From Promethearchaeota archaeon (GTDB lineage Archaea; Asgardarchaeota; Lokiarchaeia; Sigyniarchaeales; SOKP01), in the NCBI GenBank assembly GCA_048938005.1, contig JBHLMQ010000022.1, positions 1 through 24,000 of the forward strand: 24,000 bases of DNA. The letters run 5' to 3'. Made by a program: the position numbers and the translations under genes. The notes below the pieces were generated by a model. The model was not told the DNA's origin and made no database searches. It was given only the letters and a program-made list of their open reading frames with translations. Every line of letters starts with the position of its first letter. Position 1 is the stretch's first letter. This document shows positions 3,527-20,322 of this stretch, one piece after another.

Positions 3527-4147
3527 TTATTCATCTGATTTGAGACGATTTAATTCTTTCTCTAACTCGGCTATTTTTTCATCAGAAGCTGCCGTAGGTA
3601 ATGCCGCGCCCATTTCTACTTGAATTTCAGCATCAATTTCACCTAGAACTTCATTTACATCTGCATCGCTGACAGCCGTATCTAATGTAATACTATCTAT
3701 ACCATCTGTTGCGATTTCTGCGGTAACGGCGAAGTCTTCCATATCAACATCAATATTTTTCATGATTTCTGTAAGTTGTGGAATCGACATTTGGGCTTTT
3801 AAGGTTGCGAGAGATTTTGCTATTCCTACCATGATTTCAGATACATCTTTTACAGCATCAGCTTGCTCTAGTTTAAATAATAATCCTTCTAAGTTTGTCC
3901 TGAATCCATCTAAAGCACGAGCATGTTTTTTCGTTTGAAGATAATTTCTTGCATGGAATTTTGAGCCATCCATGTCACCTTGTTTTCGAAGACTCACTGC
4001 CTTATCTCTTGCTATTTTTGCGCTCATTTCCATCTTTTTTGTCTGCCGCATCAATTTTTTATTAAAAACTCTCAATTTAGTTGCTGGACGAACATCTTTT
4101 TTCCTACCTCCTGAAAGCCACTTAGAGATATCTTTTAGAAAACCCAT
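3527..4147 (-). CDS. ESCRT-III subunit, Vps2/Vps24/Vps46 (CHMP1-3)-like, with a C-terminal MIM1-like helix
   Basis: Snf7-family helical hairpin core. 'KQGDMDGSKFHARNYLQTKKHARALDGFRTNLEGLLFKLEQADAVKDVSEIMVGIAKSLATLKAQMSIPQLTEIMKNIDVDMEDFAVTAEIATDGID' aligns closely with human CHMP2 'KQGQMDAVRIMAKDLVRTRRYVRKFVLMRANIQAVSLKIQTLKSNNSMAQAMKGVTKAMGTMNRQLKLPQIQKIMMEFERQAEIMDMKEEMMNDAID'. An acidic C-terminal part ends in 'IAELEKELNRLKSDE'. The track ORF begins at a TTG (4156); I prefer the ATG at 4147, which gives MGFLKD.... Confidence 0.87.
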   Translation of the reverse strand: MGFLKDISKWLSGGRKKDVRPATKLRVFNKKLMRQTKKMEMSAKIARDKAVSLRKQGDMDGSKFHARNYLQTKKHARALDGFRTNLEGLLFKLEQADAVKDVSEIMVGIAKSLATLKAQMSIPQLTEIMKNIDVDMEDFAVTAEIATDGIDSITLDTAVSDADVNEVLGEIDAEIQVEMGAALPTAASDEKIAELEKELNRLKSDE

Positions 4148-4425
4148 ATTTATCAAATCTAATTAGTAATTATATATTATATAAATATTTATTTACTAAT
4201 ATAATTTTTTGGAGACCAGTAATTATCCTCGTTGTTTAAACAGTAAATTTGATTTATGCTAATAAAATTATTATTATTGCAGAAGGATATTAAGAAATTT
4301 CATAGTTATGCAAAATCTTTGTCTCTACTTTTTTACCAACTATAAGTAAATATGATATATTCTCGATAAATATTATTTATATATAATAATTAATACAATA
4401 ATCAAAACAAGAAAAGATGAAATGA
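4148..4425. promoter_or_regulatory. Divergent promoter region between the ESCRT-III and Vps4 genes
   Basis: 278-bp very AT-rich spacer between divergent start codons. It contains ATAAATATTTAT (4181-4192, 34-45 nt upstream of the ESCRT-III ATG), ATAAATATTATTTAT (4366-4380, 46-60 nt upstream of the Vps4 ATG) and a central 10-bp palindrome TGTTTAAACA (4233-4242). Assigning TATA/BRE function is inference only. Confidence 0.4.
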
Positions 4426-5643
4426 ATGTCCTCAGTCGATTCTAAATTATATCAATATGCTGTTAAAACAGCAAAAGAAGCAGTAGCTTTAGATAATCAA
4501 GGAAAGTTAAGACAAGCTATTAATATGTACTCTAGAGCTGCTGAAATCTTGATGCAATTTATGAAATATAATAAAAATCCTCAAATGAGAATGCTATGTC
4601 AAAGAAATATTGAAGAGTATGTTGATCGGGCCAGAATTTTGAAATCACATTTAAGTGGGGTGAGACCAAGGAGAGTAAGAGCTGCTGAAAGACCAAGTGA
4701 GGCACAAGATGCTGGAGCAGATTCTGAAGGAGTTGCTGTCTCATCAGAAGAACAGGAACTTATTGATATGATATCAGGAACAATAGTTACAGAATCACCA
4801 AATGTAAAATGGGATGATATTGCTGGATTACAAAATGTAAAGCAAGCTTTAAGAGAAGCAATCGTTTTACCAATAGTAAAACCAGAATTATTTAAAGGTG
4901 CGAGAAGACCTTGGTCAGGAATATTGCTATTTGGGCCTCCTGGATGTGGTAAGACTTTATTAGCAAAAGCCGCTGCAACTGAATGTAAAGCTACTTTTTT
5001 TAGTGCATCTTCAGCTGATTTATTAAGTAAATGGTTAGGTGAAAGTGAAAAGTTAATTAGTTCATTATTTAAAGTTGCTCGTTTAAAAGCACCTAGTTTA
5101 ATATTTATGGACGAAATAGATTCAGTAGCGACAAAGCGGGGAGAAGGTTCTGAAAGTGGAGGTGAAAGAAGGGTAAAAACGCAACTTTTAAGTGAAATTC
5201 AAGGATTAAAGTCGACTTTTGATAAACCATTATTAGTTTTAGGAGCCACAAACCGTCCTTGGGATATTGATAATGCTATGTTAAGTAGATTTGAAAAAAG
5301 AGTGCAAGTGCCTCTTCCAGATTTAAAGGCTCGAGCAGGAATTTTTAAAATTCATACTGAAGGAGTCAATTCAGCATTAACAGATGAGGATTTTATTGAA
5401 TTAGCTGTAAGGACTGAAGGTTATTCTGGTAGAGATATTGCAAATATCTGTCGTGAAGTGATTATGTTACCTATTCGTGAATTGGATATGAGTGGTCTTT
5501 TAGAAAATTCAGATAAAGAAGTAAAACTTAGAGATATCACATTGAAGGATTTCAAGAAAACACTTAAAAAAGTAAAACCGATGACTCACACGGCATTAAT
5601 GAAAAAATATAATGATTGGGCAGAGGAATTCGGAGAAGTATAA
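4426..5643 (+). CDS. vps4: Vps4-type AAA+ ATPase (N-terminal MIT domain plus a single AAA cassette)
   Basis: 405 aa.
- MIT-like three-helix N-terminus: 'AVKTAKEAVALDNQGKLRQAINMYSRAAEILMQFMKYNKNPQMRMLCQRNIEEYVDRARILKSHL'.
- Ser/Glu-rich linker.
- Walker A GPPGCGKT (nt 4933-4956).
- Walker B 'LIFMDEIDS'.
- Second region of homology 'GATNRPWDIDNAMLSRFEKR'.
- Vps4-type C-terminal helix 'YNDWAEEFGEV'. Confidence 0.93.
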   Translation: MSSVDSKLYQYAVKTAKEAVALDNQGKLRQAINMYSRAAEILMQFMKYNKNPQMRMLCQRNIEEYVDRARILKSHLSGVRPRRVRAAERPSEAQDAGADSEGVAVSSEEQELIDMISGTIVTESPNVKWDDIAGLQNVKQALREAIVLPIVKPELFKGARRPWSGILLFGPPGCGKTLLAKAAATECKATFFSASSADLLSKWLGESEKLISSLFKVARLKAPSLIFMDEIDSVATKRGEGSESGGERRVKTQLLSEIQGLKSTFDKPLLVLGATNRPWDIDNAMLSRFEKRVQVPLPDLKARAGIFKIHTEGVNSALTDEDFIELAVRTEGYSGRDIANICREVIMLPIRELDMSGLLENSDKEVKLRDITLKDFKKTLKKVKPMTHTALMKKYNDWAEEFGEV

Positions 5644-5652
5644 AAATTTTTG

Positions 5653-6555
5653 ATGATTAAAATGGAAAGGCAGAGAGAAAAAACTACAGAAATTCCTAAG
5701 GAAGTCAAAGAGAGAGCTGAAAAAGAGTTAGAGGAATTAAGGAAAGAGCTTGCTAGATTAAGAAAATTAAAGAAAGAAAAAGAACAGTTGGAAATAGAAG
5801 CAGCTCAAAAACAAATCATTAAGGAAGAAGAAATTAAGGCAACTGAGTTAAACTATATAGAAGAACAATTTGATAAACTTGAAGATATATTATCATCCAA
5901 GTTGGGTGAAATTGATCAAAAAGTATACCGCCAACATGCTGATCAGATCGAAGCAGAACTGCAAACCCTTGAAGAAGAAATTATTGGAGAAAAAGGTGTA
6001 ATAGAAAAAAAATTAACTGCTTACGAAAATTTATTGAAAGCTTATCCTTGGCTTAAGGAGGAACGTAAGAAGTTTATGTATACAATGCCAAACAAGAAGA
6101 AAAATAAAACTGATTACGTTTCTTGGAAAGTAGAATGGGCAAAAGTTCTTTTTGATTACGCAAGATTTGCTGTCTTACATATAATTTATATCAGAGAATT
6201 GAATTCTCAAAAGCCATTTTCAAATTTCACAAAACGAGAAGAATACATAAAGGAAATTGCAGAGGAATTAATAAGTCAAAATCAAGCGAAATGGCTCTCA
6301 AAAGAGAAAAAGAGATTAAGAGTATACTGGAAGACTTTAGAAGCTTGGTCAGACGAAATCTACAAATGGTGTTATGAAAATGGGAAAATCGAAACTATTA
6401 TGATATACGAATTACGAGAGGCATCTCAAGAAGATTTTAGTACACTTCCACTAGAAGATCTAGAAGAAATATTTAAAATCCTAGCAAAAAACCAAAGAGC
6501 TAAGGTATTTAAATTAGAAAATGGACAATTAGCATTTAAGATTAAACTGGAATAA
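5653..6555 (+). CDS. ESCRT-II Vps25-like protein (tandem winged helix) with a long N-terminal coiled-coil extension
   Basis: The C-terminal ~170 aa align along their length with human VPS25. 'YPWLKE..FMYTMPNKKKNKTDYVSWKVEWAKVLFDYARFAV' corresponds to 'WPWQYRFPPFFTLQPNVDTRQKQLAAWCSLVLSFCRLHK'. 'LRVYWKTLEAWSDEIYKWCYENGKIETIMIYELREASQEDFSTLPLEDLEEIFKILAKNQRAKVFKLENGQLAFK' corresponds to 'FLIMWRRPEEWGKLIYQWVSRSGQNNSVFTLYELTNGEDTEDEEFHGLDEATLLRALQALQQEHKAEIITVSDGRGVKF'. The N-terminal ~130 aa are E/K-rich heptad-like coiled coil. The gene starts 10 nt after the Vps4 stop, so it is probably co-transcribed. The ATG at 5653 or 5662 is preferred over the TTG at 5650. Confidence 0.78.
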   Translation: MIKMERQREKTTEIPKEVKERAEKELEELRKELARLRKLKKEKEQLEIEAAQKQIIKEEEIKATELNYIEEQFDKLEDILSSKLGEIDQKVYRQHADQIEAELQTLEEEIIGEKGVIEKKLTAYENLLKAYPWLKEERKKFMYTMPNKKKNKTDYVSWKVEWAKVLFDYARFAVLHIIYIRELNSQKPFSNFTKREEYIKEIAEELISQNQAKWLSKEKKRLRVYWKTLEAWSDEIYKWCYENGKIETIMIYELREASQEDFSTLPLEDLEEIFKILAKNQRAKVFKLENGQLAFKIKLE

Positions 6556-6570
6556 TATAAAATTCTTATT

Positions 6571-7284
6571 TTACAAAGAAGGGAAATACCATTGTTTCCC
6601 TGTTAGGATATTTTCCCTAAATTTAGCTACCCCACTCTTTTCGAGAGATTCTAAGGCTCGAAGAGCACGATCTTGCGACCATTCTAAATTAGCGCACACA
6701 TCTTCTAAAGTAAGAACTCCTTTCTCTTTAGCTAAATCAACAACTTTTGCTTCATCGCCTGTATATTGAATAGGAAAAAACCGTACAATAATAGCTCCTG
6801 AATCTAATTGGATAATATCTTCAATAACTCTTGTCTTTTTCAACATTTTCAACGCCTTTTCAACATCTTTTATTTCGACATTCCCTTTCAAAATACCCGT
6901 ATTTACTAGTTCAAACACTTCTGATAATGGGATTATGCCTCCAGTTTCTTCTTTACTCATCAAAACTCTCTGATATGCTAACATCCCTAACTTCTCGTGA
7001 TCAATTTTGGAGAATTTCCTCAATACATCATGCTCTGTAATTTGTTCAGTAATAATTTTTGAAGATGGAATGTTATATTTTTTTTGCAATTCTTTTACTT
7101 CTTCTCTTAATTCTGGTGTTAAAGCTAATAAAACTCCATGTTTCTTAGCTAATTCTCTAAGATTATCTTTTGTAAATTTTTCAACTGCAGCTTTTGCTTG
7201 TATATCTTTCATTTTCAGTTCTGCTGCCTTCTTTTTCATCGCTTCTTTTAAATCAATCTCATCTTCTATCTTTCGAATGCCCAT
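6571..7284 (-). CDS. ESCRT-II Vps22/Vps36 (EAP30/SNF8)-like protein
   Basis: 237 aa, aligning over the full length with human SNF8/EAP30.
- 'FTKDNLRELAKKHGVLLALTPELREEVKELQKKYNIP' corresponds to 'FKTNLEEFASKHKQEIRKNPEFRVQFQDMCATIGVDP'.
- 'ETGGIIPLSEVFELVN' corresponds to 'RNGGLITLEELHQQV'.
- 'VVDLAKEKGVLTLEDVCANLEWSQDRALRALESLEKSGVAKF...GKQWYFPSL' corresponds to 'VLQLAEKNGYVTVSEIKASLKWETERARQVLEHLLKEGLAWLD...EAHYWLPALF'. Confidence 0.82.
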   Translation of the reverse strand: MGIRKIEDEIDLKEAMKKKAAELKMKDIQAKAAVEKFTKDNLRELAKKHGVLLALTPELREEVKELQKKYNIPSSKIITEQITEHDVLRKFSKIDHEKLGMLAYQRVLMSKEETGGIIPLSEVFELVNTGILKGNVEIKDVEKALKMLKKTRVIEDIIQLDSGAIIVRFFPIQYTGDEAKVVDLAKEKGVLTLEDVCANLEWSQDRALRALESLEKSGVAKFRENILTGKQWYFPSL

Positions 7285-7363
7285 TTTTAGATAACACTAT
7301 TTTTTAATACCTTTATTGATTAATAATAATAAAACTTCTTATTTCTTTTTATTTTTATTAACA

Positions 7364-7942
7364 ATGAGCAATATTTTGAGTTTTAGACAGATCAACGAAA
7401 TTGAAAAAGAAATAATGATTACTTCTCTTTCAAAGATCTCTTCAGAATTTTCACAGATTATTGAGAATTATAGAACATTTTTATATATTTCAATAGAAAG
7501 GGCAGTATCTAAAAACAAATTTCCCAATATTTTTTTAATTTCAAAAGATCAAGTTAGGTTATTACATTCTTTAAACAACAATAAAATTATCTCAGCCGGT
7601 TTATATTTTGGATTTATCAAGAAAGGTAATTTTTATTTAAGCTTAGAAGGTGCGGAATTTCTATATAAACAAGATATTTTTTCTGATTTTAAAAGACTTT
7701 ATATTAACGAGAAAGGAGAAAAGTCTATTCTATATGGAAATAATATTTTAAAAAAAATGGTTATCAAACCACCTTCAAATCTCCAGAAACAAGATTTTTT
7801 ATTAGTCTTTAACGAAATTGATGAAATAATAGCTATTGCCCAATCTAAAGTTGAGAATATAAAGTTCAAACAGTTAAAATCTAATGAAATTATTGCTGTT
7901 AACTTAAGTGATAAAGGACTTTATTTAAGGAAAAAGCAATAA
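7364..7942 (+). CDS. nip7: NIP7-like ribosome-biogenesis / PUA-domain RNA-binding protein
   Basis: 'KIISAGLYFGFIKKGNFYLSLEGAEFL', 'GEKSILYGNNILKKMV', 'FLLVFNEIDEIIAIAQSK' and 'NLSDKGLYLRK' parallel human NIP7 '[28 protein letters not shown]', 'AEQSFLYGNHVLKSGL', 'VVVYSMADIPLGFGVAAKS' and 'HQADIGEYVR'. The track ORF starts at a TTG (7316) and adds a hydrophobic low-complexity leader. The ATG at 7364 (MSNILSF...) is preferred. Confidence 0.75.
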   Translation: MSNILSFRQINEIEKEIMITSLSKISSEFSQIIENYRTFLYISIERAVSKNKFPNIFLISKDQVRLLHSLNNNKIISAGLYFGFIKKGNFYLSLEGAEFLYKQDIFSDFKRLYINEKGEKSILYGNNILKKMVIKPPSNLQKQDFLLVFNEIDEIIAIAQSKVENIKFKQLKSNEIIAVNLSDKGLYLRKKQ

Positions 7943-8210: not shown

Positions 8211-9539
8211 TTAATTATAATGCTCTCCATTTTTTTCGTAGTTTTTATTTAATAACTTAATCTCTTCATCCGAAATTTGTTTCATCTCATCTTCTAGCTC
8301 ATCATAGAGTTTTATAAACTCAGATGGGAAGGAGAGAGGAGATTTTATCAATTCAGCTTTAATAGATTGAAATTGTTCTTCATCTGTAAATATTTTTTTG
8401 AGTTTATTTTCCAATTCTAATGGAATTTTCAAAAATCTACCCGTTAATAATAGAGGTTGTTTTTTACTTTTTATAATTTTGTAAGGAAAATTGGAAAAAT
8501 ATTTTTCAATCAATTCAAATGCGCTTTCATATTGAGACATATCTTTAACCGATTTTTTTAATTCTCGCTCAAATTTTTTCTCGAAATCTTGTGTAAAATT
8601 CAAAACAGACTCACGTAACAATTTGGAAGATTTAGATGCGACTAAACCCACTGTAATTGATTTTGATTCATTCAAAATCAAAATACCTTCTTCCAAATTG
8701 ATATCTAATAAACCCCCAATATTCATTAGTTCTTCGCTCATGAGTTGAACAGCATTTAAAAATCCTGTAAATATATCTTCATCGATGTTTAATTCAGTCC
8801 AATCATGATCGTATATTGGATAACCTTCTCTATCTTTTACAACTAATCTATATATGGTGAATGGTAATATGTATAGCAATTTTGGTTCTTTTATAATAGC
8901 AATGATAAAGATTAGAATTCCTAAACCCATCATAATATCTGCATATACAATAAATATTGGCTCCAAATAAAAAAATATATACACGATAAGAGAAGCTGGT
9001 AGAGCAAGGCAAATACCTAGGAATAATATTAAGGCTTCTTTTTTAATTAAAAAAGGAGCATTTAACCAAGTTTTAAAACCCCAATAAAAAAGGATAACCA
9101 CTCCAGAAATTTGAAACAAATCACCCATTATCGCTAAAATACCGGCCCAATTTACATTAAAATATCCAGATTCGAATACAATTACAGCAGTTCCTGGTAA
9201 AAATATTGAATAACATGCTATTGAACCTAAAATACAGATTATGATTAAACCTACGGATTTAAAAGATTCTGAAATAACATAATTCACTCCTATTACTAGA
9301 AAAATTATGGCAAAAACAACGAAAATTAAGCTAATTTTTGATAATATTTGGTTCACTAAAAGAATTGTTAGGCAATCAATATAAAAATATATGGCAATTA
9401 AAAGGATACCTAGTCTAATAAAAAACAACGATTTTATTTTTTTTGTTTTAGGTTCAAAATAAGTTAATGCTGAAGCTATTAGTGTTATTGTCGCAACATA
9501 CAAATCCACTATTGCTTCAGGTGCCCAGTTTAATTCCAT
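8211..9539 (-). CDS. Polytopic membrane protein with a cytoplasmic longin/roadblock-like domain and a helical acidic tail
   Basis: 442 aa. Residues ~1-218 are successive hydrophobic helices. Residues ~225-330 (nt ~8550-8867), 'IYRLVVKDREGYPIYDHDWTELNIDEDIFTGFLNAVQLMSEELMNIGGLLDINLEEGILILNESKSITVGLVASKSSKLLRESVLNFTQDFEKKFEREL', show the beta-beta-alpha-beta-beta-beta-alpha pattern and the 'GFL.A...F' signature of longin/sybindin/roadblock-type domains. The domain assignment comes from pattern recognition only. Confidence 0.6.
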   Translation of the reverse strand: MELNWAPEAIVDLYVATITLIASALTYFEPKTKKIKSLFFIRLGILLIAIYFYIDCLTILLVNQILSKISLIFVVFAIIFLVIGVNYVISESFKSVGLIIICILGSIACYSIFLPGTAVIVFESGYFNVNWAGILAIMGDLFQISGVVILFYWGFKTWLNAPFLIKKEALILFLGICLALPASLIVYIFFYLEPIFIVYADIMMGLGILIFIIAIIKEPKLLYILPFTIYRLVVKDREGYPIYDHDWTELNIDEDIFTGFLNAVQLMSEELMNIGGLLDINLEEGILILNESKSITVGLVASKSSKLLRESVLNFTQDFEKKFERELKKSVKDMSQYESAFELIEKYFSNFPYKIIKSKKQPLLLTGRFLKIPLELENKLKKIFTDEEQFQSIKAELIKSPLSFPSEFIKLYDELEDEMKQISDEEIKLLNKNYEKNGEHYN

Positions 9540-9594
9540 GTTTCCTATTTACTCCTCTATTAATATATTAGTATTTCTATTTTAATATTTAAAT

Positions 9595-10314
9595 TCATTC
9601 AACTGTATTTGTTTTTTTAGTTAATATTCGAACAATAAAATCTTTCTTATTTGGATTTATATAAATCAAGTTATCTAATTCTTCTTTTACTAATAAAATT
9701 TTATGTTCAATTAAACCATTGATTCGATAATACACATTTTCTCTTTTTTCATTGATTAACTTATAAATTTCTGATTTTTTAAGTGATTCTTGCTCAGTTA
9801 TTAAATTAACAATTTTCATATTAATTTTGTCTCCTAACAAAAAATTAAGAATTCCCATTTCCCTATCCATTTCATATGGAAGAAAAACAGAGTAGTTCCC
9901 AACTTTTATTTTTTTAATATATTCGAATTTCAATAGCATCTCTAAATGCCAGATTAATTGCCCCGAACTTACTAAATTGTCTGTTTGATTATCTTTTAAA
10001 ATTTTTCTAATTAAAGAGTAATGAACTGCTCCATTTTTTTTAATGAAGCGAAAGATATTATATCTCAATCTATTTGAAAGTACAGTTTCTTTAGAAAATT
10101 TGGAGCCTTCTATTAATATCTTTTTATTAATCAAAAAATGGATGATAGATATTAATCCGCTTTTCGGTATTTTTAATCGTTTTTTTGCTAAATTATATAA
10201 ATTCTCTAGGTTGAGAATTTTATTTTTATTCATAATTTCCTCAGCTATCTCCAAAACTCTCTTCACACTTGGATGTTCTAATCCAATTGGTGTAGTTAGA
10301 ATCTGAGTTTTCAT
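9595..10314 (-). CDS. Multi-winged-helix (2-3 wHTH repeats) protein, putative DNA-binding regulator
   Basis: 239 aa with three successive ~65-aa segments that look like winged-helix domains. Examples: 'RLRYNIFRFIKKNGAVHYSLIRKILKDNQTDNLVSSGQLIWHLEMLLKFEYIKKIKVGNYSVFLP' and 'MKIVNLITEQESLKKSEIYKLINEKRENVYYRINGLIEHKILLVKEE'. It lies 55 nt upstream of the membrane-longin gene on the same strand. Confidence 0.6.
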   Translation of the reverse strand: MKTQILTTPIGLEHPSVKRVLEIAEEIMNKNKILNLENLYNLAKKRLKIPKSGLISIIHFLINKKILIEGSKFSKETVLSNRLRYNIFRFIKKNGAVHYSLIRKILKDNQTDNLVSSGQLIWHLEMLLKFEYIKKIKVGNYSVFLPYEMDREMGILNFLLGDKINMKIVNLITEQESLKKSEIYKLINEKRENVYYRINGLIEHKILLVKEELDNLIYINPNKKDFIVRILTKKTNTVE

Positions 10315-10331
10315 ATTAGAGATAACCTATT

Positions 10332-10718
10332 TTATTCTATGACGTAAATCGAATTATAATGCTCCTTATCAGATATCATATATAATTCTTTTTTTAAATT
10401 GTTGAATAAGCATATAAATTCTGAAAATGTTCCCTTTGGGGCTTTCAGAATTTCAAGTTTTACTAATTTCCTAACTTTGGCATCTTTAATAGATTTATCA
10501 AGAATTCTATAAAGATTGTTCCTTAATAAATATAGAAATAAATTATCCTTAAAAATATATATTTTGAATATAGGTCTTAAAATTTTTGGTAATGTTAATA
10601 ACTTGTAATTTTTTCTGTTTAATTTTTGAATCCTACCTTTAGATTTTGAGATTAAATCCTCTGTTCTTCTTAAAGTATTTGATTTCCTATTACTGCCTTT
10701 TTTTATTGAATTCTGCAT
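10332..10718 (-). CDS. Small basic hypothetical protein
   Basis: 128-aa ORF with a Lys/Arg-rich N-terminus (KKGSNRKSNTLRRTEDLISKSKGRIQKLNRKNYK). It ends 17 nt before the wHTH gene on the same strand. No recognisable motif, so the coding status rests on ORF length and operon context. Confidence 0.45.
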   Translation of the reverse strand: MQNSIKKGSNRKSNTLRRTEDLISKSKGRIQKLNRKNYKLLTLPKILRPIFKIYIFKDNLFLYLLRNNLYRILDKSIKDAKVRKLVKLEILKAPKGTFSEFICLFNNLKKELYMISDKEHYNSIYVIE

Positions 10719-12505: not shown

Positions 12506-12784
12506 TTATTTCTTTAAATCTTTATATTGCCCATCCATGATTTGTGCTATGTATCGTCTTCCCTTAATAATCCACATTATTTTATGTCCTTCTCTTGCTT
12601 TTTTACCCCACTCGGATTTCTTATTACGATTTTGTTCAATATATCGATACCCAAAAAGATCCACATATTTTACACCACTTGAGAACTTTTTTATAGAGTA
12701 TTCAATCTCGTCAATTTCAACGCTTTTTTTTCCTTCAAATATAGCATCAAATATCTTCAAACCATTTTCTTTTATTTTTTCCAT
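12506..12784 (-). CDS. Small hypothetical protein, translationally coupled to the upstream HD-domain gene
   Basis: 92-aa ORF preceded by a perfect Shine-Dalgarno sequence. Contains 'YIEQNRNKKSEWGKKAREGHKIMW', a conserved-looking stretch I cannot assign to a named family. Confidence 0.6.
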   Translation of the reverse strand: MEKIKENGLKIFDAIFEGKKSVEIDEIEYSIKKFSSGVKYVDLFGYRYIEQNRNKKSEWGKKAREGHKIMWIIKGRRYIAQIMDGQYKDLKK

Positions 12785-12792
12785 ATTTCTAA

Positions 12793-12800
12793 ATCACCTC
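12793..12800 (-). promoter_or_regulatory. Shine-Dalgarno ribosome-binding site overlapping the upstream stop codon
   Basis: The minus strand reads aTTTGAGGTGATttagaaatATG. GAGGTGAT is an 8-nt complement of the 16S rRNA 3' end and sits 8 nt before the ATG at 12784. The TGA stop of the HD gene (12801-12799) overlaps the first two SD bases. Confidence 0.55.
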
Positions 12801-14280
12801 AAATAATTATGATATCATGTGCTATGATATTTTCCTTTTTTTCCTTCTTATGTTTAATTATTTTAATGTCATGAAGGTTAATAGTAGTTTTAGGAAATAG
12901 GTTTCCACTATTTAACCTTCCAAATGTTTTTTTCTTCTCATTTGAAAATAGATTGAAATTAAATTTCATTAGATCTTTAGCTTGTTCATTTCTAAATTGC
13001 ATTAACCATGAAAACTCGTCTAAAGTTAGTAATAGCTCATCTAAGAGAGTGACTTTTTCCAATTCAGTTGTAAAATATGTATCGCGTATTTGAATTGGAA
13101 TGGGTCTACCCCACTCTTGTAGTTCATCTATTAGCATTAAGAAAAACGCCAATGGTTGCTCATCAAACAAATAATCTTTAAGATTTGCTTTAAAATTATG
13201 CAAAGCTATGGCTCGTGCTGCTAGAATATATCCAATATATTCATCATTTTTTTTAATTTCTTCTGGTGTTCCAAGTCCCTTCAGTAGAGAAAGTGCAGAA
13301 ATAACTCCATGATCTAATTCTACAGGGCTCTTGTAATTATATTCAGGATGACCATCTGGTTGATTCAAGAAAATTTGAGAATTTTGAGAAGGAAGTTCCT
13401 GAAATTTAAATCCAGCGCCTTCTCTTATTAAAATACGAGCTTCTTTAGAAAGTCCTTCTTCTATAATCGTCAGATATTTTTCTTGCTCACCTTTCCAAGC
13501 TAAATTGATTTCAAAGGGAATAAATTCTAAATCTATAGTAGGATAGCATTTTAGGATTTGGTTAACAAGTGAATAGTTAACAGCGGTTGTCATTTTACCT
13601 AATGGATAACCAATATCATGGAGTAGCCCTACAATCCACCAAAATTTGTCTTTAAGAAGATTTCTGTCTAAGTCTGTTAATTCAGAAATAATTCCTTCTA
13701 AGGAACCTTGACCAAGGTCTTGTTCTAATAAGAAATCTCCTAATACTGCCACACGAAGTGCATGTTCAGTATGATCTCTATAATACTTTTTTACACTTGT
13801 ACTATAAAGAAAAGCTTCTAGGTCTGGTAAAGCACGTATTAAATACAACAATCCCTTTGATTCGATACCTCTTTCTTTAGATACATCATAAAGGGCCGAT
13901 GACAAATTTTTTTTCTTTCCAGTTAGAAAATCCAATCCAGGAATTACGTCTAATTTTTCAATCCCCTGAAGAGATTGTTCAATTCCTTTAGTTATTGGTT
14001 TTTTAACACTTTCAATGATATCCATTGAAAAACTCGAGAATTTTTTCCCAAAACCCCCTAATTTGGCAAATTCTTTTTGGGCTGAAGCTAACTCCTTATC
14101 TAAGTCCTGAAAGGAGATTTTATCTTTTTCTTTTTTAATTTGTTCAAGAACTTCTGGAGGTGCTTCTTCAAGTGATCTTTCGACTGATTCTAACAGATTG
14201 TTTACCCAATTAGAAAAACTATTGCTTTGGGAGGATATCCTGTTTAAGATCCAATCATCATTTATATGGAAATCTGGCAA
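12799..14280 (-). CDS. HD-domain metal-dependent phosphohydrolase with long N- and C-terminal extensions; start uncertain
   Basis: 493-aa ORF. HD signature 'YYRDHTEHALRVAVLGDFLL ... WWIVGLLHDIGYPLGK ... ELDHGVISALSL ... ARAIALHNF'. The track start is a TTG at 14280 and the first in-frame ATG is ~85 codons downstream. The intervening sequence looks protein-like, so the true start is unresolved. Confidence 0.7.
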   Translation of the reverse strand: MPDFHINDDWILNRISSQSNSFSNWVNNLLESVERSLEEAPPEVLEQIKKEKDKISFQDLDKELASAQKEFAKLGGFGKKFSSFSMDIIESVKKPITKGIEQSLQGIEKLDVIPGLDFLTGKKKNLSSALYDVSKERGIESKGLLYLIRALPDLEAFLYSTSVKKYYRDHTEHALRVAVLGDFLLEQDLGQGSLEGIISELTDLDRNLLKDKFWWIVGLLHDIGYPLGKMTTAVNYSLVNQILKCYPTIDLEFIPFEINLAWKGEQEKYLTIIEEGLSKEARILIREGAGFKFQELPSQNSQIFLNQPDGHPEYNYKSPVELDHGVISALSLLKGLGTPEEIKKNDEYIGYILAARAIALHNFKANLKDYLFDEQPLAFFLMLIDELQEWGRPIPIQIRDTYFTTELEKVTLLDELLLTLDEFSWLMQFRNEQAKDLMKFNFNLFSNEKKKTFGRLNSGNLFPKTTINLHDIKIIKHKKEKKENIIAHDIIII

Positions 14281-14541: not shown

Positions 14542-15915
14542 ATGGTTTATTTTGAGATTGATCAGTTAGGATTTAATTGCGGAAAAATTAAAGAGAAATG
14601 TTCAAAGTATCCTAAGTTTTGCATGGATTGTGTTAAAAATAAATTAAAACAACTTGGTTTTGAAATAGATTCTAATTTGAAAGTATTTGAAGTTGATTCT
14701 TATGAACGTCGCCTTCAGATGGAACGCGAATTAATTTGGCGAAAATTTTTAGATGTTCTAAATATAAGACATGTTATAATTATTGATAAGGATTCTGGAT
14801 TAACTCTTTTAAACTATCCTGTATCTGGTGAAGAGATAAACGCAGATTTATTGAGCGGTTTCATTCAAGCAAATATCACCTTTTCTGAATCACATAAAGG
14901 TTCATACAAGAGTTCACCCTCAGCAAGAAATCATAAATTTTATGAATTCCAATACCAAAATTTCAATATACTTTTAAGGAATGGAGAATTCATTCGGCTT
15001 TGTTTAATGCTTGATCATAAAGCTTCTGAAAATATGAGAACTCAAGTTCTCCAATTCATTCCTGAATTTGAAGAAATTTTTAATCAAGAGCTACAAAATT
15101 TTAGAAATGCTGGAATGTTTTATTACAAGAATATGGTTGATTATATCATTGATATACTTGAAATTAAGTTAGTTTTTCCGATGAAATTGGCTCATTCAAT
15201 CACTCCTAAAGATTTAGAAAGTATTAATCAAAATCAACTTCAAAAAGCGATATATAATATTGCTAAGGAATTACTCATTTCAAAATCATTCTTTTTTATT
15301 AATAATCTACTCAACCGAGTGAAAAAAATTGTTAATCTAGATGCAAATGTTATTTTATTTCAGATATATCAGTTAGTAGAGAATAAAACCATTATTCCAA
15401 CAAAGTTAGAAGCAGCTGTAAGTAATATCGAGATGATTCAAGAAGCTAGGGACGAAAAGATTGCTAAATATAAGCCAATTTCTTCTATTATTATAACAGA
15501 TTCAGATTTGGAAAATTTAAAAGAAAAAGTAGAAGATATGGATGAGAGTTCAGCAAATAAGATGATAAAGGAATTGATCAAGAAAGGAAAAGCAGCTGAA
15601 AAGTCTCTGGCGTATCAGGTTGGCGAACATGAATATAAAAAAGCCTTATTTCTAGCAAGGGAATTTAATTTGAAAACAGAAATGGATAGAATTTCAAAAT
15701 TGTTATTAGATTTAGATAAACAAGTTAAACAAATAGAGTTAGATTTTACTTTGAAAGCAGGAGAAAATGCCGAAAAAAGTGGTGATAAGATAAATAGTAT
15801 TCACTATTATCAAAAAGCATTAAAGATACTTGAAAGTTTTTTAATTTATAATATTTCTGATTCTCGAATTAAAAAATTGAAGAAGAAAATTATTAAACTC
15901 CGTGAAGAGATATAA
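14542..15915 (+). CDS. Multidomain protein: Cys4 N-terminus, longin/roadblock-like domain, winged-helix-like segment, C-terminal TPR/MIT-like helical repeats
   Basis: 457 aa.
- N-terminus: 'FNCGKIKEKCSKYPKFCMDCVK' (C-x6-C-x6-C-x2-C).
- Residues ~74-186 (nt ~14761-15099): 'IRHVIIIDKDSGLTLLNYPVSGEEINADLLSGFIQANITFSES...YEFQYQNFNILLRNGEFIRLCLMLDHKASENMRTQVLQFIPEFEEIFNQEL', the same domain pattern as in the 442-aa membrane protein.
- Residues ~338-457 (nt ~15553-15912): two helical repeats, 'GKAAEKSLAYQVGEHEYKKALFLAREFN' and 'LKAGENAEKSGDKINSIHYYQKALKILESFLIYNISDSRIKKLKKKIIKLREEI'. The second resembles a MIT/TPR three-helix unit. Confidence 0.6.
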   Translation: MVYFEIDQLGFNCGKIKEKCSKYPKFCMDCVKNKLKQLGFEIDSNLKVFEVDSYERRLQMERELIWRKFLDVLNIRHVIIIDKDSGLTLLNYPVSGEEINADLLSGFIQANITFSESHKGSYKSSPSARNHKFYEFQYQNFNILLRNGEFIRLCLMLDHKASENMRTQVLQFIPEFEEIFNQELQNFRNAGMFYYKNMVDYIIDILEIKLVFPMKLAHSITPKDLESINQNQLQKAIYNIAKELLISKSFFFINNLLNRVKKIVNLDANVILFQIYQLVENKTIIPTKLEAAVSNIEMIQEARDEKIAKYKPISSIIITDSDLENLKEKVEDMDESSANKMIKELIKKGKAAEKSLAYQVGEHEYKKALFLAREFNLKTEMDRISKLLLDLDKQVKQIELDFTLKAGENAEKSGDKINSIHYYQKALKILESFLIYNISDSRIKKLKKKIIKLREEI

Positions 15916-19959: not shown

Positions 19960-20322
19960 ATGCCTTGTATTCACGGTTTAGATGAAATAAATTGCCCTAC
20001 GTGCCGAATTTTAAAATCCAACGTGCCATTAAAAGGTATTAGTTTAAAAAAGACAATTTTTTTACAAGTTAATAACCTCACTTCTAAAAAAAATAAAGAT
20101 CTGGAAAAAAAATTAATAAATGAGATTACGTCTAAAAAAATGCATTTACAGCCACCAAATTTTATATCCAAACCGGGTATTATAGACGAAATGTCTAATT
20201 TTAAAAATGAATTATTTTTGGAAAGATTCAAAGATCTCGATATAGGTAAAGAAGATCCTTATGGAATTACTAAAAAAACTCCTCTTGAAAGTCCTGAGTG
20301 GAAATTTGAAGAAGAGGATTAA
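19960..20322 (+). CDS. Small hypothetical protein with an N-terminal Cys-knuckle (C-x-H...C-P-x-C)
   Basis: 120-aa ORF beginning 'MPCIHGLDEINCPTCRILK', followed by a Lys-rich low-complexity middle and an acidic tail, 'PEWKFEEED'. Confidence 0.45.
   Translation: MPCIHGLDEINCPTCRILKSNVPLKGISLKKTIFLQVNNLTSKKNKDLEKKLINEITSKKMHLQPPNFISKPGIIDEMSNFKNELFLERFKDLDIGKEDPYGITKKTPLESPEWKFEEED

Follow-up and report, generated by a model that had tools for sequence, protein, structure and literature searches.

The gene at positions 14,542 to 15,915 of the window (the whole 24,000-nucleotide stretch of the Promethearchaeota archaeon contig analysed here) is a real gene with an unannotated domain architecture assembled from known folds, and its function is something that we infer. 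In hundreds of giant Asgard surface proteins, the cytoplasmic tail is built from the same domain set. We propose, with a probability of roughly 40%, that its 457-aa product is a cytoplasmic scaffold linking membrane proteins, a small GTPase and ESCRT-III, by way of Roadblock pairing and a MIT-like helical bundle. What is established here is how the domains are arranged, that this arrangement is conserved, and that it is homologous to a 442-aa neighbour and to the surface-protein tails. The features discussed are the following:

14542..15915, plus strand: complete ORF with an ATG start, encoding a 457-aa protein (Cys4 – Roadblock – winged helix – linker – TPR/MIT-like)
14542..14661, plus strand: Cys4 motif C13-x6-C20-x6-C27-x2-C30 (residues 1-40), probably a small zinc finger
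14698..15111, plus strand: Roadblock/LC7-fold domain (residues ~53-190), by AF2 and Foldseek
15181..15411, plus strand: winged-helix-like domain (residues ~214-290), from the AF2 secondary-structure pattern only
15412..15543, plus strand: low-confidence linker (residues ~291-334) with a conserved K-P-I-S-S-I-I
15544..15723, plus strand: first TPR-like helical repeat (residues ~335-394)
15724..15912, plus strand: MIT-like three-helix unit (residues ~395-457), by sub-threshold Pfam matches, hhalign, a PDB profile and Foldseek
8211..9539, minus strand: ORF of the 442-aa membrane protein
8472..8855, minus strand: paralogous Roadblock-type domain (residues ~229-356 of this multi-pass protein), by alignment and profiles
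3527..4156, minus strand: ESCRT-III (Snf7) gene (Pfam Snf7, E=3.3e-16)

The reverse strand of the gene contains stops throughout; a scan for sigma-70 promoters and terminators was uninformative, the host being an archaeon. Homologues of the protein number 407 at E<=1e-3, every named one coming from an Asgard MAG, and the family is conserved from end to end. Neither Pfam nor NCBIfam places the 457-aa protein in a family above threshold, and literature searches by locus tag, accession and concept found no description of the family; their coverage is incomplete, and earlier cataloguing (for example, in asCOG) is possible. A hydropathy scan of family representatives other than the window protein found no transmembrane segment, in agreement with the original prediction of a soluble copy.

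The central domain had been described as longin- or roadblock-like. This description is supported, and from the structural model we favour a fold closer to Roadblock/LC7 than to longin. A first AF2 run used a shallow alignment (sequences at least 53% identical); it left the central domain at pLDDT <50, and Foldseek searches with that model returned mostly poor TPR superpositions. With a diverse alignment (A3) the region reached pLDDT 86.9 and pTM 0.81, with the order alpha-beta-beta-alpha-beta-beta-beta-alpha-alpha, the second helix carrying D-x-D-L-L-S-G-F-I-Q-A. This model gave 44 Foldseek matches in the PDB at E<=1e-3, nearly all of them to Roadblock proteins, the top ones being MglB, the MK-D1 Roadblock3, LAMTOR, the Rag C-terminal domains and dynein LC7. 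The likeness to the Roadblock/LC7 superfamily (MglB; the Asgard Roadblock structures 9jue and 9jq8; LAMTOR/Ragulator; Rag) lies in the fold, at E~1e-4 and TM 0.6-0.66 relative to the target. In contrast, the 457-aa protein has no detectable sequence similarity to Robl_LC7 or to solved members: Pfam Robl_LC7 (PF03259) was not matched by 27 diverse module sequences at E<=1, and a profile search of PDB sequences with the module recovered no Roadblock protein. Moreover, classical Roadblocks are single domains of ~100-130 aa, whereas here the Roadblock is one part of a longer chain that also has a Cys4 finger, a winged helix and a MIT-like unit, and its paralogues are membrane-anchored.

A longin identity is less well supported. 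Longins (AP sigma, COPI zeta and the SNARE longins) have a related alpha/beta sandwich, and AP2 sigma and COPZ1 were matched at Foldseek E~3e-4. However, longin matches were few and weaker, with TM about 0.4 and larger rmsd, and the longin order (beta-beta-alpha-beta-beta-beta-alpha-alpha) has no N-terminal helix, whereas the model opens with a helix of 22 residues, which is typical of Roadblock.

The same domain was said to occur in the 442-aa membrane protein, and the two genes do prove paralogous over it, in a segment at residues ~77-184 of the 457-aa protein. Smith-Waterman alignment of the two Roadblock segments scores 60, against 28.8±4.9 in 2000 shuffles, none of which reaches 60 (z=6.3). 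Alignment of the two family alignments by hhalign pairs residues 75-217 with 229-356 (P=1.2e-4), and an HMM built from residues 55-300 of the 457-aa family matches the 442-aa family at 20-27 bits in a constant register. Whole-protein BLASTP between the two proteins missed the alignment, so segment and profile methods were needed for this comparison. An HMM built from unrelated membrane-protein tails alone, from which both window proteins were excluded, gives E=1.8e-56 for the 457-aa protein and E=4.3e-17 for the 442-aa protein.

These tails are the most extensive occurrence of the domain set, and their recognition is, as far as the Roadblock–winged helix(–MIT-like) set on large surface proteins is concerned, new here. 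The set lies just after the transmembrane helix in more than 100 cluster representatives of large Loki- and Hel-archaeal surface proteins, of up to 3,025 aa. In these representatives, as in the 442-aa neighbour, a transmembrane helix is followed by a basic stretch and then by the Roadblock and winged-helix module. The C-terminal helical unit is found in 28 full-length membrane-tail representatives as well, in up to three copies, and there too the MIT matches are sub-threshold. The module family comprises 760 cluster representatives at E<=1e-3. Neither the large tail-bearing proteins nor the module has a family in Pfam or NCBIfam, and a homologue search started from the module alignment recovered only the 457-aa family and yielded no names for the large proteins. 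Because the domain set forms the tails of giant surface proteins, the 457-aa protein may plausibly link membrane proteins, small GTPases and ESCRT-III.

What distinguishes the soluble form is its N-terminus, the Cys4 region being confined to the 457-aa family. The predicted C-x6-C-x6-C-x2-C start is borne out: C13, C20, C27 and C30 are invariant in 37 of 37 homologues, and all four are retained at 33-35% identity, where the middle spacing is x7. The AF2 model of the region has a helix and two short strand pairs, moderately confident as a fold (pLDDT 57-78), and the four cysteines probably bind a metal. Residues ~214-290, confident in both AF2 models, show the pattern H-H-(strand)-H-H-strand, like that of a winged helix, and this part of the profile also matches the first winged helix of a 239-aa protein (9595-10314). 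The linker that follows is at pLDDT <50 over residues 292-319, and its motif is conserved (S314 invariant, I313 and S315 at least 90%). A Cys4 motif together with a winged-helix-like domain could belong to a DNA-binding regulator, and the 239-aa neighbour has related winged-helix repeats. We consider this very improbable: the putative recognition helix (DANVILFQIYQLVENKTI), read from the sequence, is not basic, the same winged helix stands on the membrane-proximal tails of surface proteins, and no DNA-binding family is matched in Pfam or NCBIfam.

The C-terminus was predicted to end in two helical repeats, the last being a MIT unit. Two TPR-like repeats are indeed present, with AF2 helices at residues 335-354, 358-374 and 378-412 and, in the MIT-like unit, at ~395-412, 416-433 and 441-456 (pLDDT 65-82). 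The first repeat gives TPR_1 matches at residues 345-371 in family members and aligns with the Vps4 MIT domain at 56% probability only (hhalign). The final ~65 residues look like a distant relative of MIT domains. Their top match is Pfam MIT in 32 of 37 family members, always sub-threshold (13.7 bits for the window protein and 26.8 bits, E=5.5e-6, for the best member, against a cut-off of 30). By hhalign, the unit aligns with the Vps4 MIT domain at 92-94% probability over 40 columns, in a comparison where 3 of the 10 MIT sequences were entered by hand. Profile A4, searched against PDB sequences, finds 2v6y at E=2.6e-5 (positions 19-69), 2w2u at 0.005 and 4lcb at 0.007; only archaeal Vps4/CdvC MIT domains span all three helices, TPR matches being restricted to positions 19-41. 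Foldseek superposes the unit on 2w2u_B (the Sulfolobus Vps4 MIT domain) with TM 0.75 and rmsd 2.7 Å over 70 columns. The MIT assignment thus goes beyond a generic TPR signal, in the profile match over three helices and in the structure, but misses the Pfam threshold.

Three known systems invite comparison. The Vps4/CdvC MIT domains (PF04212; 2v6y, 2w2u and 4lcb) are similar in length, in their three helices and in the matches above, and the unit has the asymmetric three-helix bundle of ~65-80 residues that marks MIT domains; unlike them, every family member falls below the curated Pfam threshold, helix 3 is short and terminal, and the unit closes a protein that is not an ATPase and in which another TPR-like repeat comes before it. 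Eukaryotic non-ATPase and tandem-MIT proteins (Vta1/LIP5, MITD1, AMSH, calpain-7 and ULK3) resemble it in concept: they combine a MIT module with other domains and are recruited by ESCRT-III, and the tandem ones recall the two helical repeats here and the up to three units in paralogues. Their partner domains differ, however, and orthology is not indicated. As for TPR proteins, the strongest sequence signal of the C-terminus (residues 406-429) is a generic TPR motif close to the consensus, and UniRef calls a Lokiarchaeum homologue 'Tetratricopeptide repeat protein'; yet TPR proteins have three or more 34-residue repeats forming a superhelix, and here there are two motifs only, both sub-threshold. 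A pure TPR protein is rejected because the TPR matches span 23 residues and superpose badly (rmsd 12-15 Å on TPR arrays).

MIT domains bind MIM motifs of ESCRT-III, and some eukaryotic ones (Atg38/NRBF2) do not bind ESCRT-III. The Snf7 protein encoded in the window has a C-terminus (IAELEKELNRLK) that, read from its translation, resembles a MIM1 motif, which makes it a hypothetical ligand of the MIT-like unit. In clade A (22 loci, at least 64% identity), the gene lies in a conserved block, and an ESCRT-III/Vps4/Vps25/EAP30 cluster is found 3-8 kb upstream wherever the fetched flank extends far enough. Among relatives of 33-60% identity no ESCRT gene occurs within 10 kb, and the same holds for about 55 loci outside the close relatives; across Asgard lineages this placement is not conserved, being limited to close relatives (at least 64% identity). 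In the window, the gene stands alone with its immediate neighbours on the opposite strand, and between it and the ESCRT genes lie RsmB, CYTH, NIP7 and other housekeeping genes. Close relatives may therefore simply have inherited this synteny. The 457-aa protein itself has no Pfam match to Vps23/28/37, Vps22/25/36, Snf7 or Vps4, and the ESCRT surveys consulted do not mention its family, which places it, as anticipated, outside the canonical Asgard ESCRT gene set.

A different neighbour marks clade B (43-60% identity), where 31 loci have an orthologous small Arf/Ras-like GTPase gene downstream in the same orientation; in 10 of these loci the gap is just 137-240 nt. This arrangement recalls the MglA/MglB pairs, and Roadblock domains are known to dimerise, by way of the beta-sheet edge and helix 2, and to serve as GTPase platforms (MglB, Ragulator). 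The protein could then be a regulator or platform of small GTPases (GAP, GEF or scaffold) with no ESCRT role, its C-terminal helices being a general TPR-type binding module. The best structural matches (MglB, LAMTOR and the Rag C-terminal domains), the GTPase gene of clade B and the lack of ESCRT linkage outside one clade all speak for this; it is nevertheless somewhat unlikely in our view, as no GTPase gene occurs in the window or beside the gene in its own clade, and the three-helix C-terminus, taken over its full length, fits Vps4 MIT domains better than it fits any natural TPR protein. Some GTPase adjacency is expected by chance, Asgard genomes being rich in small GTPases, and a GTPase platform would be compatible with ESCRT binding as well.

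Elsewhere in the family gene contexts vary. In two loci (L006 and L071) the gene is flanked by genes for a ubiquitin E2 and a ThiF/E1-like protein, and no ESCRT link was seen in the gene context of the two membrane paralogues examined or of three further family members. Such variety would suit a generic scaffold or signalling role, involving neither ESCRT nor GTPases, in which surface receptors use the set as a tail for output or docking and the soluble form is a cytoplasmic partner or decoy. The set is indeed found mainly on tails of large surface proteins that otherwise have no annotated domain in common, and TPR-type motifs are common interaction modules. This explanation is unlikely: wherever Roadblock and MIT domains have been characterised, their known partners are specific and related to trafficking, and synteny is conserved in two different lineages, in one of them with ESCRT genes and in the other with a GTPase gene.

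The scaffold that we propose would have five parts: the Cys4 finger, the Roadblock/LC7 domain, the winged helix, a flexible linker, and the C-terminal TPR-like repeat with the MIT-like unit. By analogy with other Roadblock proteins, the Roadblock domain may pair with itself or with its membrane-anchored paralogues. The two paired domains could then form a platform on which a small Arf/Ras-like GTPase is docked or regulated. Meanwhile, a short helical motif would be bound by the MIT-like bundle, the MIM-like tail of ESCRT-III being the most probable candidate, and the protein would thereby bring ESCRT-III/Vps4 to particular membrane proteins or sites, or the reverse. Counted in support of the scaffold are the end-to-end conservation with its invariant Cys4, four independent lines for the MIT-like unit, the confident Roadblock model, the homology to membrane proteins, the synteny in clades A and B, the E2 and ThiF/E1-like neighbours in two loci and the MIM1-like tail; counted against it are the sub-threshold MIT matches, the generic TPR signal, the isolated position of the gene in the window, the ESCRT proximity in clade A only, the absence of ESCRT genes near the membrane paralogues examined, the chance expectation of GTPase adjacency and the Atg38/NRBF2 precedent.

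A stronger version, in which the C-terminus is a genuine, ESCRT-III-binding MIT domain and the cytoplasmic Roadblock–winged helix–MIT tails couple the giant proteins to ESCRT, we regard as quite doubtful. If true, non-ATPase proteins with MIT domains, which have until now been described from eukaryotes alone, would also form a family in Loki-type Asgard archaea, comprising the soluble Cys4 form as well as giant surface proteins by the hundred. Through Roadblock pairing and a small GTPase, surface proteins would then be tied to ESCRT-dependent sorting, or to vesicle or protrusion formation, as an archaeal cargo or adaptor layer upstream of ESCRT-III.

The archaeal ESCRT literature consulted here discusses no MIT-domain protein other than Vps4/CdvC. 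In the conserved set described here, Roadblock, a fold known from GTPase platforms, is combined with a MIT-like module, and Loki-type Asgard archaea carry this combination as a soluble protein and also in the tails of their largest surface proteins. It would offer concrete candidates for what directs the Asgard ESCRT machinery to particular membranes or cargo, and both the segment 335-457 and the tails of ESCRT-III are of a size that suits direct binding assays. Should there be no ESCRT role, the analysis still defines an unannotated family of 760 cluster representatives for which neither Pfam nor NCBIfam has a model.

The open reading frame at 14542-15915 (+) is real: it starts with ATG, encodes 457 amino acids and belongs to a family conserved end to end. 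The proposed Cys4 N-terminus holds well, as C13, C20, C27 and C30 are invariant in 37 sequences (53 to 100% identity to the target) and are kept, along with the full architecture, in relatives at 33 to 35% identity. That this copy is soluble is also supported, a hydropathy scan of the family representatives giving no transmembrane segment. In the linker, otherwise modeled at low confidence, a motif K-P-I-S-S-I-I (15478-15498, residues 311-317) is conserved at I313, S314 and S315, and might serve as a short linear motif, be phosphorylated or add a strand; related (I/V)-x-S-A-P-(I/V) stretches are seen in the membrane paralogues, again within their linkers.

AF2 could not resolve residues 65-210 from a shallow alignment of the family (pLDDT below 50). 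Given 27 diverse sequences, with distant relatives drawn from an exhaustive profile search across 1.84 billion cluster representatives, it modeled residues 52-303 at pLDDT 86.9 and pTM 0.81, in the order long helix, two strands, helix, three strands, two helices; from this Roadblock part a helical linker leads to a winged-helix-like unit. Foldseek found 44 matches in the PDB at E<=1e-3, of which the majority are Roadblock/LC7 proteins (MglB, Roadblock3 and Roadblock2 of Prometheoarchaeum MK-D1, MP1/p14/LAMTOR, RagA/C C-terminal domains, dynein LC7), whereas four weaker ones are longins (AP2 sigma, COPI zeta). The domain is therefore predicted, from the model, to have a Roadblock/LC7-type fold; of the 'longin/roadblock' label of the original prediction, the second half is favoured. 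In sequence the domain showed no detectable likeness to either Pfam Robl_LC7 or any solved Roadblock protein. That a protein carrying this winged-helix-like unit should work by binding DNA seems very improbable.

The similarity between the target and the 442-aa membrane protein is missed by whole-protein BLASTP. Alignment of the two segments gave z=6.3 against 2000 shuffles, and profile-profile comparison paired target residues 75-217 with residues 229-356 of the 442-aa protein (P=1.2e-4). An HMM of target-family residues 55-300 matched 442-aa family members at 20 to 27 bits in a single register, while another, built only from the tails of other proteins with both window proteins left out, recovered the target (E=1.8e-56) and the 442-aa protein (E=4.3e-17). 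Because segment, profile-profile and HMM tests agree, we regard the proposed paralogy as confirmed, over a region longer than first thought.

In the C-terminal region, two helical repeats, the last of them MIT-like, had been proposed. The first AF2 model is confident over residues 330-457 and contains five helices. Residues 406-429 fit the TPR consensus, which accounts for strong matches to designed consensus-TPR proteins. A generic TPR was nevertheless rejected: a profile built from 28 diverse sequences for the C-terminal 70 residues matched TPR proteins at positions 19-41 only, and TPR arrays superposed at 12-15 Å in Foldseek. The same profile matched archaeal Vps4/CdvC MIT domains over all three helices (2v6y, E=2.6e-5; 2w2u, E=0.005; 4lcb, E=0.007). 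With hhalign, the match to a Vps4 MIT alignment (ten MIT sequences, three of them entered by hand) had a probability of 92-94% and ran over 40 columns, where that to consensus TPR ran over 21-23, and the sole helical Foldseek match with good rmsd was Sulfolobus Vps4 MIT (2w2u_B, TM 0.75, 2.7 Å). Pfam MIT was the commonest family match (32 of 37 members, best E=5.5e-6; TPR_2 in 17) and spans ~50 residues, helix 3 included, at scores below the 30-bit cut-off in every matching member. We conclude that the last ~65 residues form a remote MIT-type three-helix unit with a second TPR-like repeat before it; the two repeats stand, and the likeness to MIT exceeds that to a generic TPR while falling short of the Pfam cut-off.

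The window (~30% G+C) contains a typical Asgard ESCRT cluster.

Genes of the window (coordinates, strand, description)
3527-4156, -, Snf7/ESCRT-III, ESCRT cluster
4426-5643, +, Vps4, clear MIT domain (50.9 bits), ESCRT cluster
5650-6555, +, Vps25/ESCRT-II, ESCRT cluster
6571-7284, -, EAP30/Vps22, ESCRT cluster
7316-7942, +, NIP7-like PUA protein, beside the ESCRT genes
8211-9539, -, 442-aa membrane protein
9595-10314, -, 239-aa protein, three winged-helix-like repeats
10332-10718, -, p128
12506-12784, -, p92, 92-aa ORF without family match, overlapped by an 89-aa ORF on the opposite strand
12799-14280, -, 493-aa protein, sole family signal a weak HD-domain match (E=0.057)
19960-20322, +, 120-aa ORF, cysteine-rich start MPCIHGLDEINCPTC…, no family match, possibly another small zinc-binding protein

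The C-terminus of the Snf7 protein (3527-3580, -) reads ...IAELEKELNRLKSDE. The MIM1 motif has the core L-x3-L-x2-L-K, and the last stretch, …DEKIAELEKELNRLKSDE, fits it as a putative motif, judging from sequence.

The p128, 239-aa and 442-aa genes, adjacent on one strand (8211-10718), look like one unit. The C-termini of p128 and the 442-aa protein are alike (BLASTP E=5e-6), and the module profile, in its winged-helix section, picks up the first winged helix of the 239-aa protein (E~3e-6). Nine related loci have both the 442-aa and the 239-aa gene, and five of these nine also have p128. The target gene stands alone, the upstream 493-aa gene being divergent and a nucleotidyl-transferase gene, 9 nt downstream, convergent.

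We surveyed 78 loci in species-representative genomes. Clade A (22 loci, at least 64% identity) shares the block NIP7 – (442-aa – triple-winged-helix protein – p128) – RsmB – CYTH – p92 – (493-aa protein) – target – NTP-transferase – AMP-ligase. Conservation of p92, close upstream of the target, extends to 19 related loci. The 493-aa gene, present in 12 of about 22 otherwise syntenic loci and missing from others, seems to have been inserted between p92 and the target. The ESCRT cluster lies directly upstream of NIP7 in Clade A wherever the 10-kb flank extends far enough, but no ESCRT gene was found within 10 kb in relatives at 33 to 60% identity, nor near the two membrane paralogues examined. 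Proximity to ESCRT is thus real yet clade-limited, and may be inherited synteny.

In 31 loci of Clade B (43 to 60% identity), within L028-L074 (examples: L036, 7667; L045, 3848; L063, 11531), the homologue of the target is followed on its own strand by the gene of a ~169-aa small GTPase of Arf/Ras/Roc type, orthologous from locus to locus. These GTPases are 55 to 85% identical to one another, and the gap is merely 137-240 nt in 10 of the 31 loci. This linkage fits the Roadblock fold; a role with a GTPase only, which it would also suit, is somewhat less probable than the scaffold reading given below. In L006 (9224-13675) and L071, from BAJA/BC3 Loki MAGs, the homologue is flanked by ubiquitin E2 (UQ_con) and ThiF/E1-like genes.

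Every named homologue belongs to a MAG of Promethearchaeota (Loki-type) or of another Asgard group. One contig labelled 'Candidatus Nanopelagicaceae bacterium' (L040, DATKTW010000013.1) carries a 52%-identical homologue with the downstream GTPase as in Loki MAGs, and is probably a mis-binned Asgard contig. In the JBHL… submission series, MAGs go under the labels Thor-, Odin-, Heimdall-, Hermod- or Hodarchaeota, with proteins 58 to 79% identical to those of Promethearchaeota MAGs and a common synteny. These phylum labels look unreliable, and the true range may therefore be Lokiarchaeia/Helarchaeales only.

Roadblock proteins are dimeric GTPase platforms, and MIT domains bind MIM motifs. By analogy, the target may, on the likeliest reading (probability about 40%), be a scaffold with two activities: through its Roadblock domain it would form pairs, either of two copies of the protein or with a membrane-anchored paralogue, for example its 442-aa neighbour, the pair perhaps engaging a small GTPase, and its MIT-like unit would take up a helical motif, for which the predicted MIM1-like tail of ESCRT-III is the most plausible candidate. 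Generic docking or signalling appears unlikely, more so than the GTPase-only role.

Asgard genomes are already known for many Roadblock/longin families with shuffled architectures. The component folds of the target are known; in the open literature searched we found no description of their combination, of archaeal MIT-type proteins other than Vps4, or of a Roadblock–winged helix surface-protein tail.

The exhaustive search returned 760 cluster representatives at E<=1e-3 (377 at E<=1e-10). Beyond the 457-aa family these are mainly proteins of 900-3,025 aa, with named hosts in Lokiarchaeota/Promethearchaeota, Helarchaeota and 'Candidatus Harpocratesius repetitus', in which the Roadblock–winged helix module (equivalent to target residues ~55-290) reaches or nearly reaches the C-terminus, directly preceded by a hydrophobic helix plus basic stretch. 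Pfam gave no matches in these large proteins; judged by sequence, the long portions N-terminal to the module appear extracellular. Of the full-length large representatives, 28 also have the C-terminal helical unit of ~125 residues, and four of seven surface-protein tails tested have sub-threshold MIT matches. Some giant surface proteins carry two or three such TPR/MIT-like units in tandem after the module (P0287, residues 1424-1858, up to three copies; P0336, residues 2701-2956). Since the module recurs after a membrane helix, and since the Cys4 N-terminus was found in the 457-aa family only, the target is a soluble, Cys4-headed form of the cytoplasmic tail found on many Asgard surface proteins.
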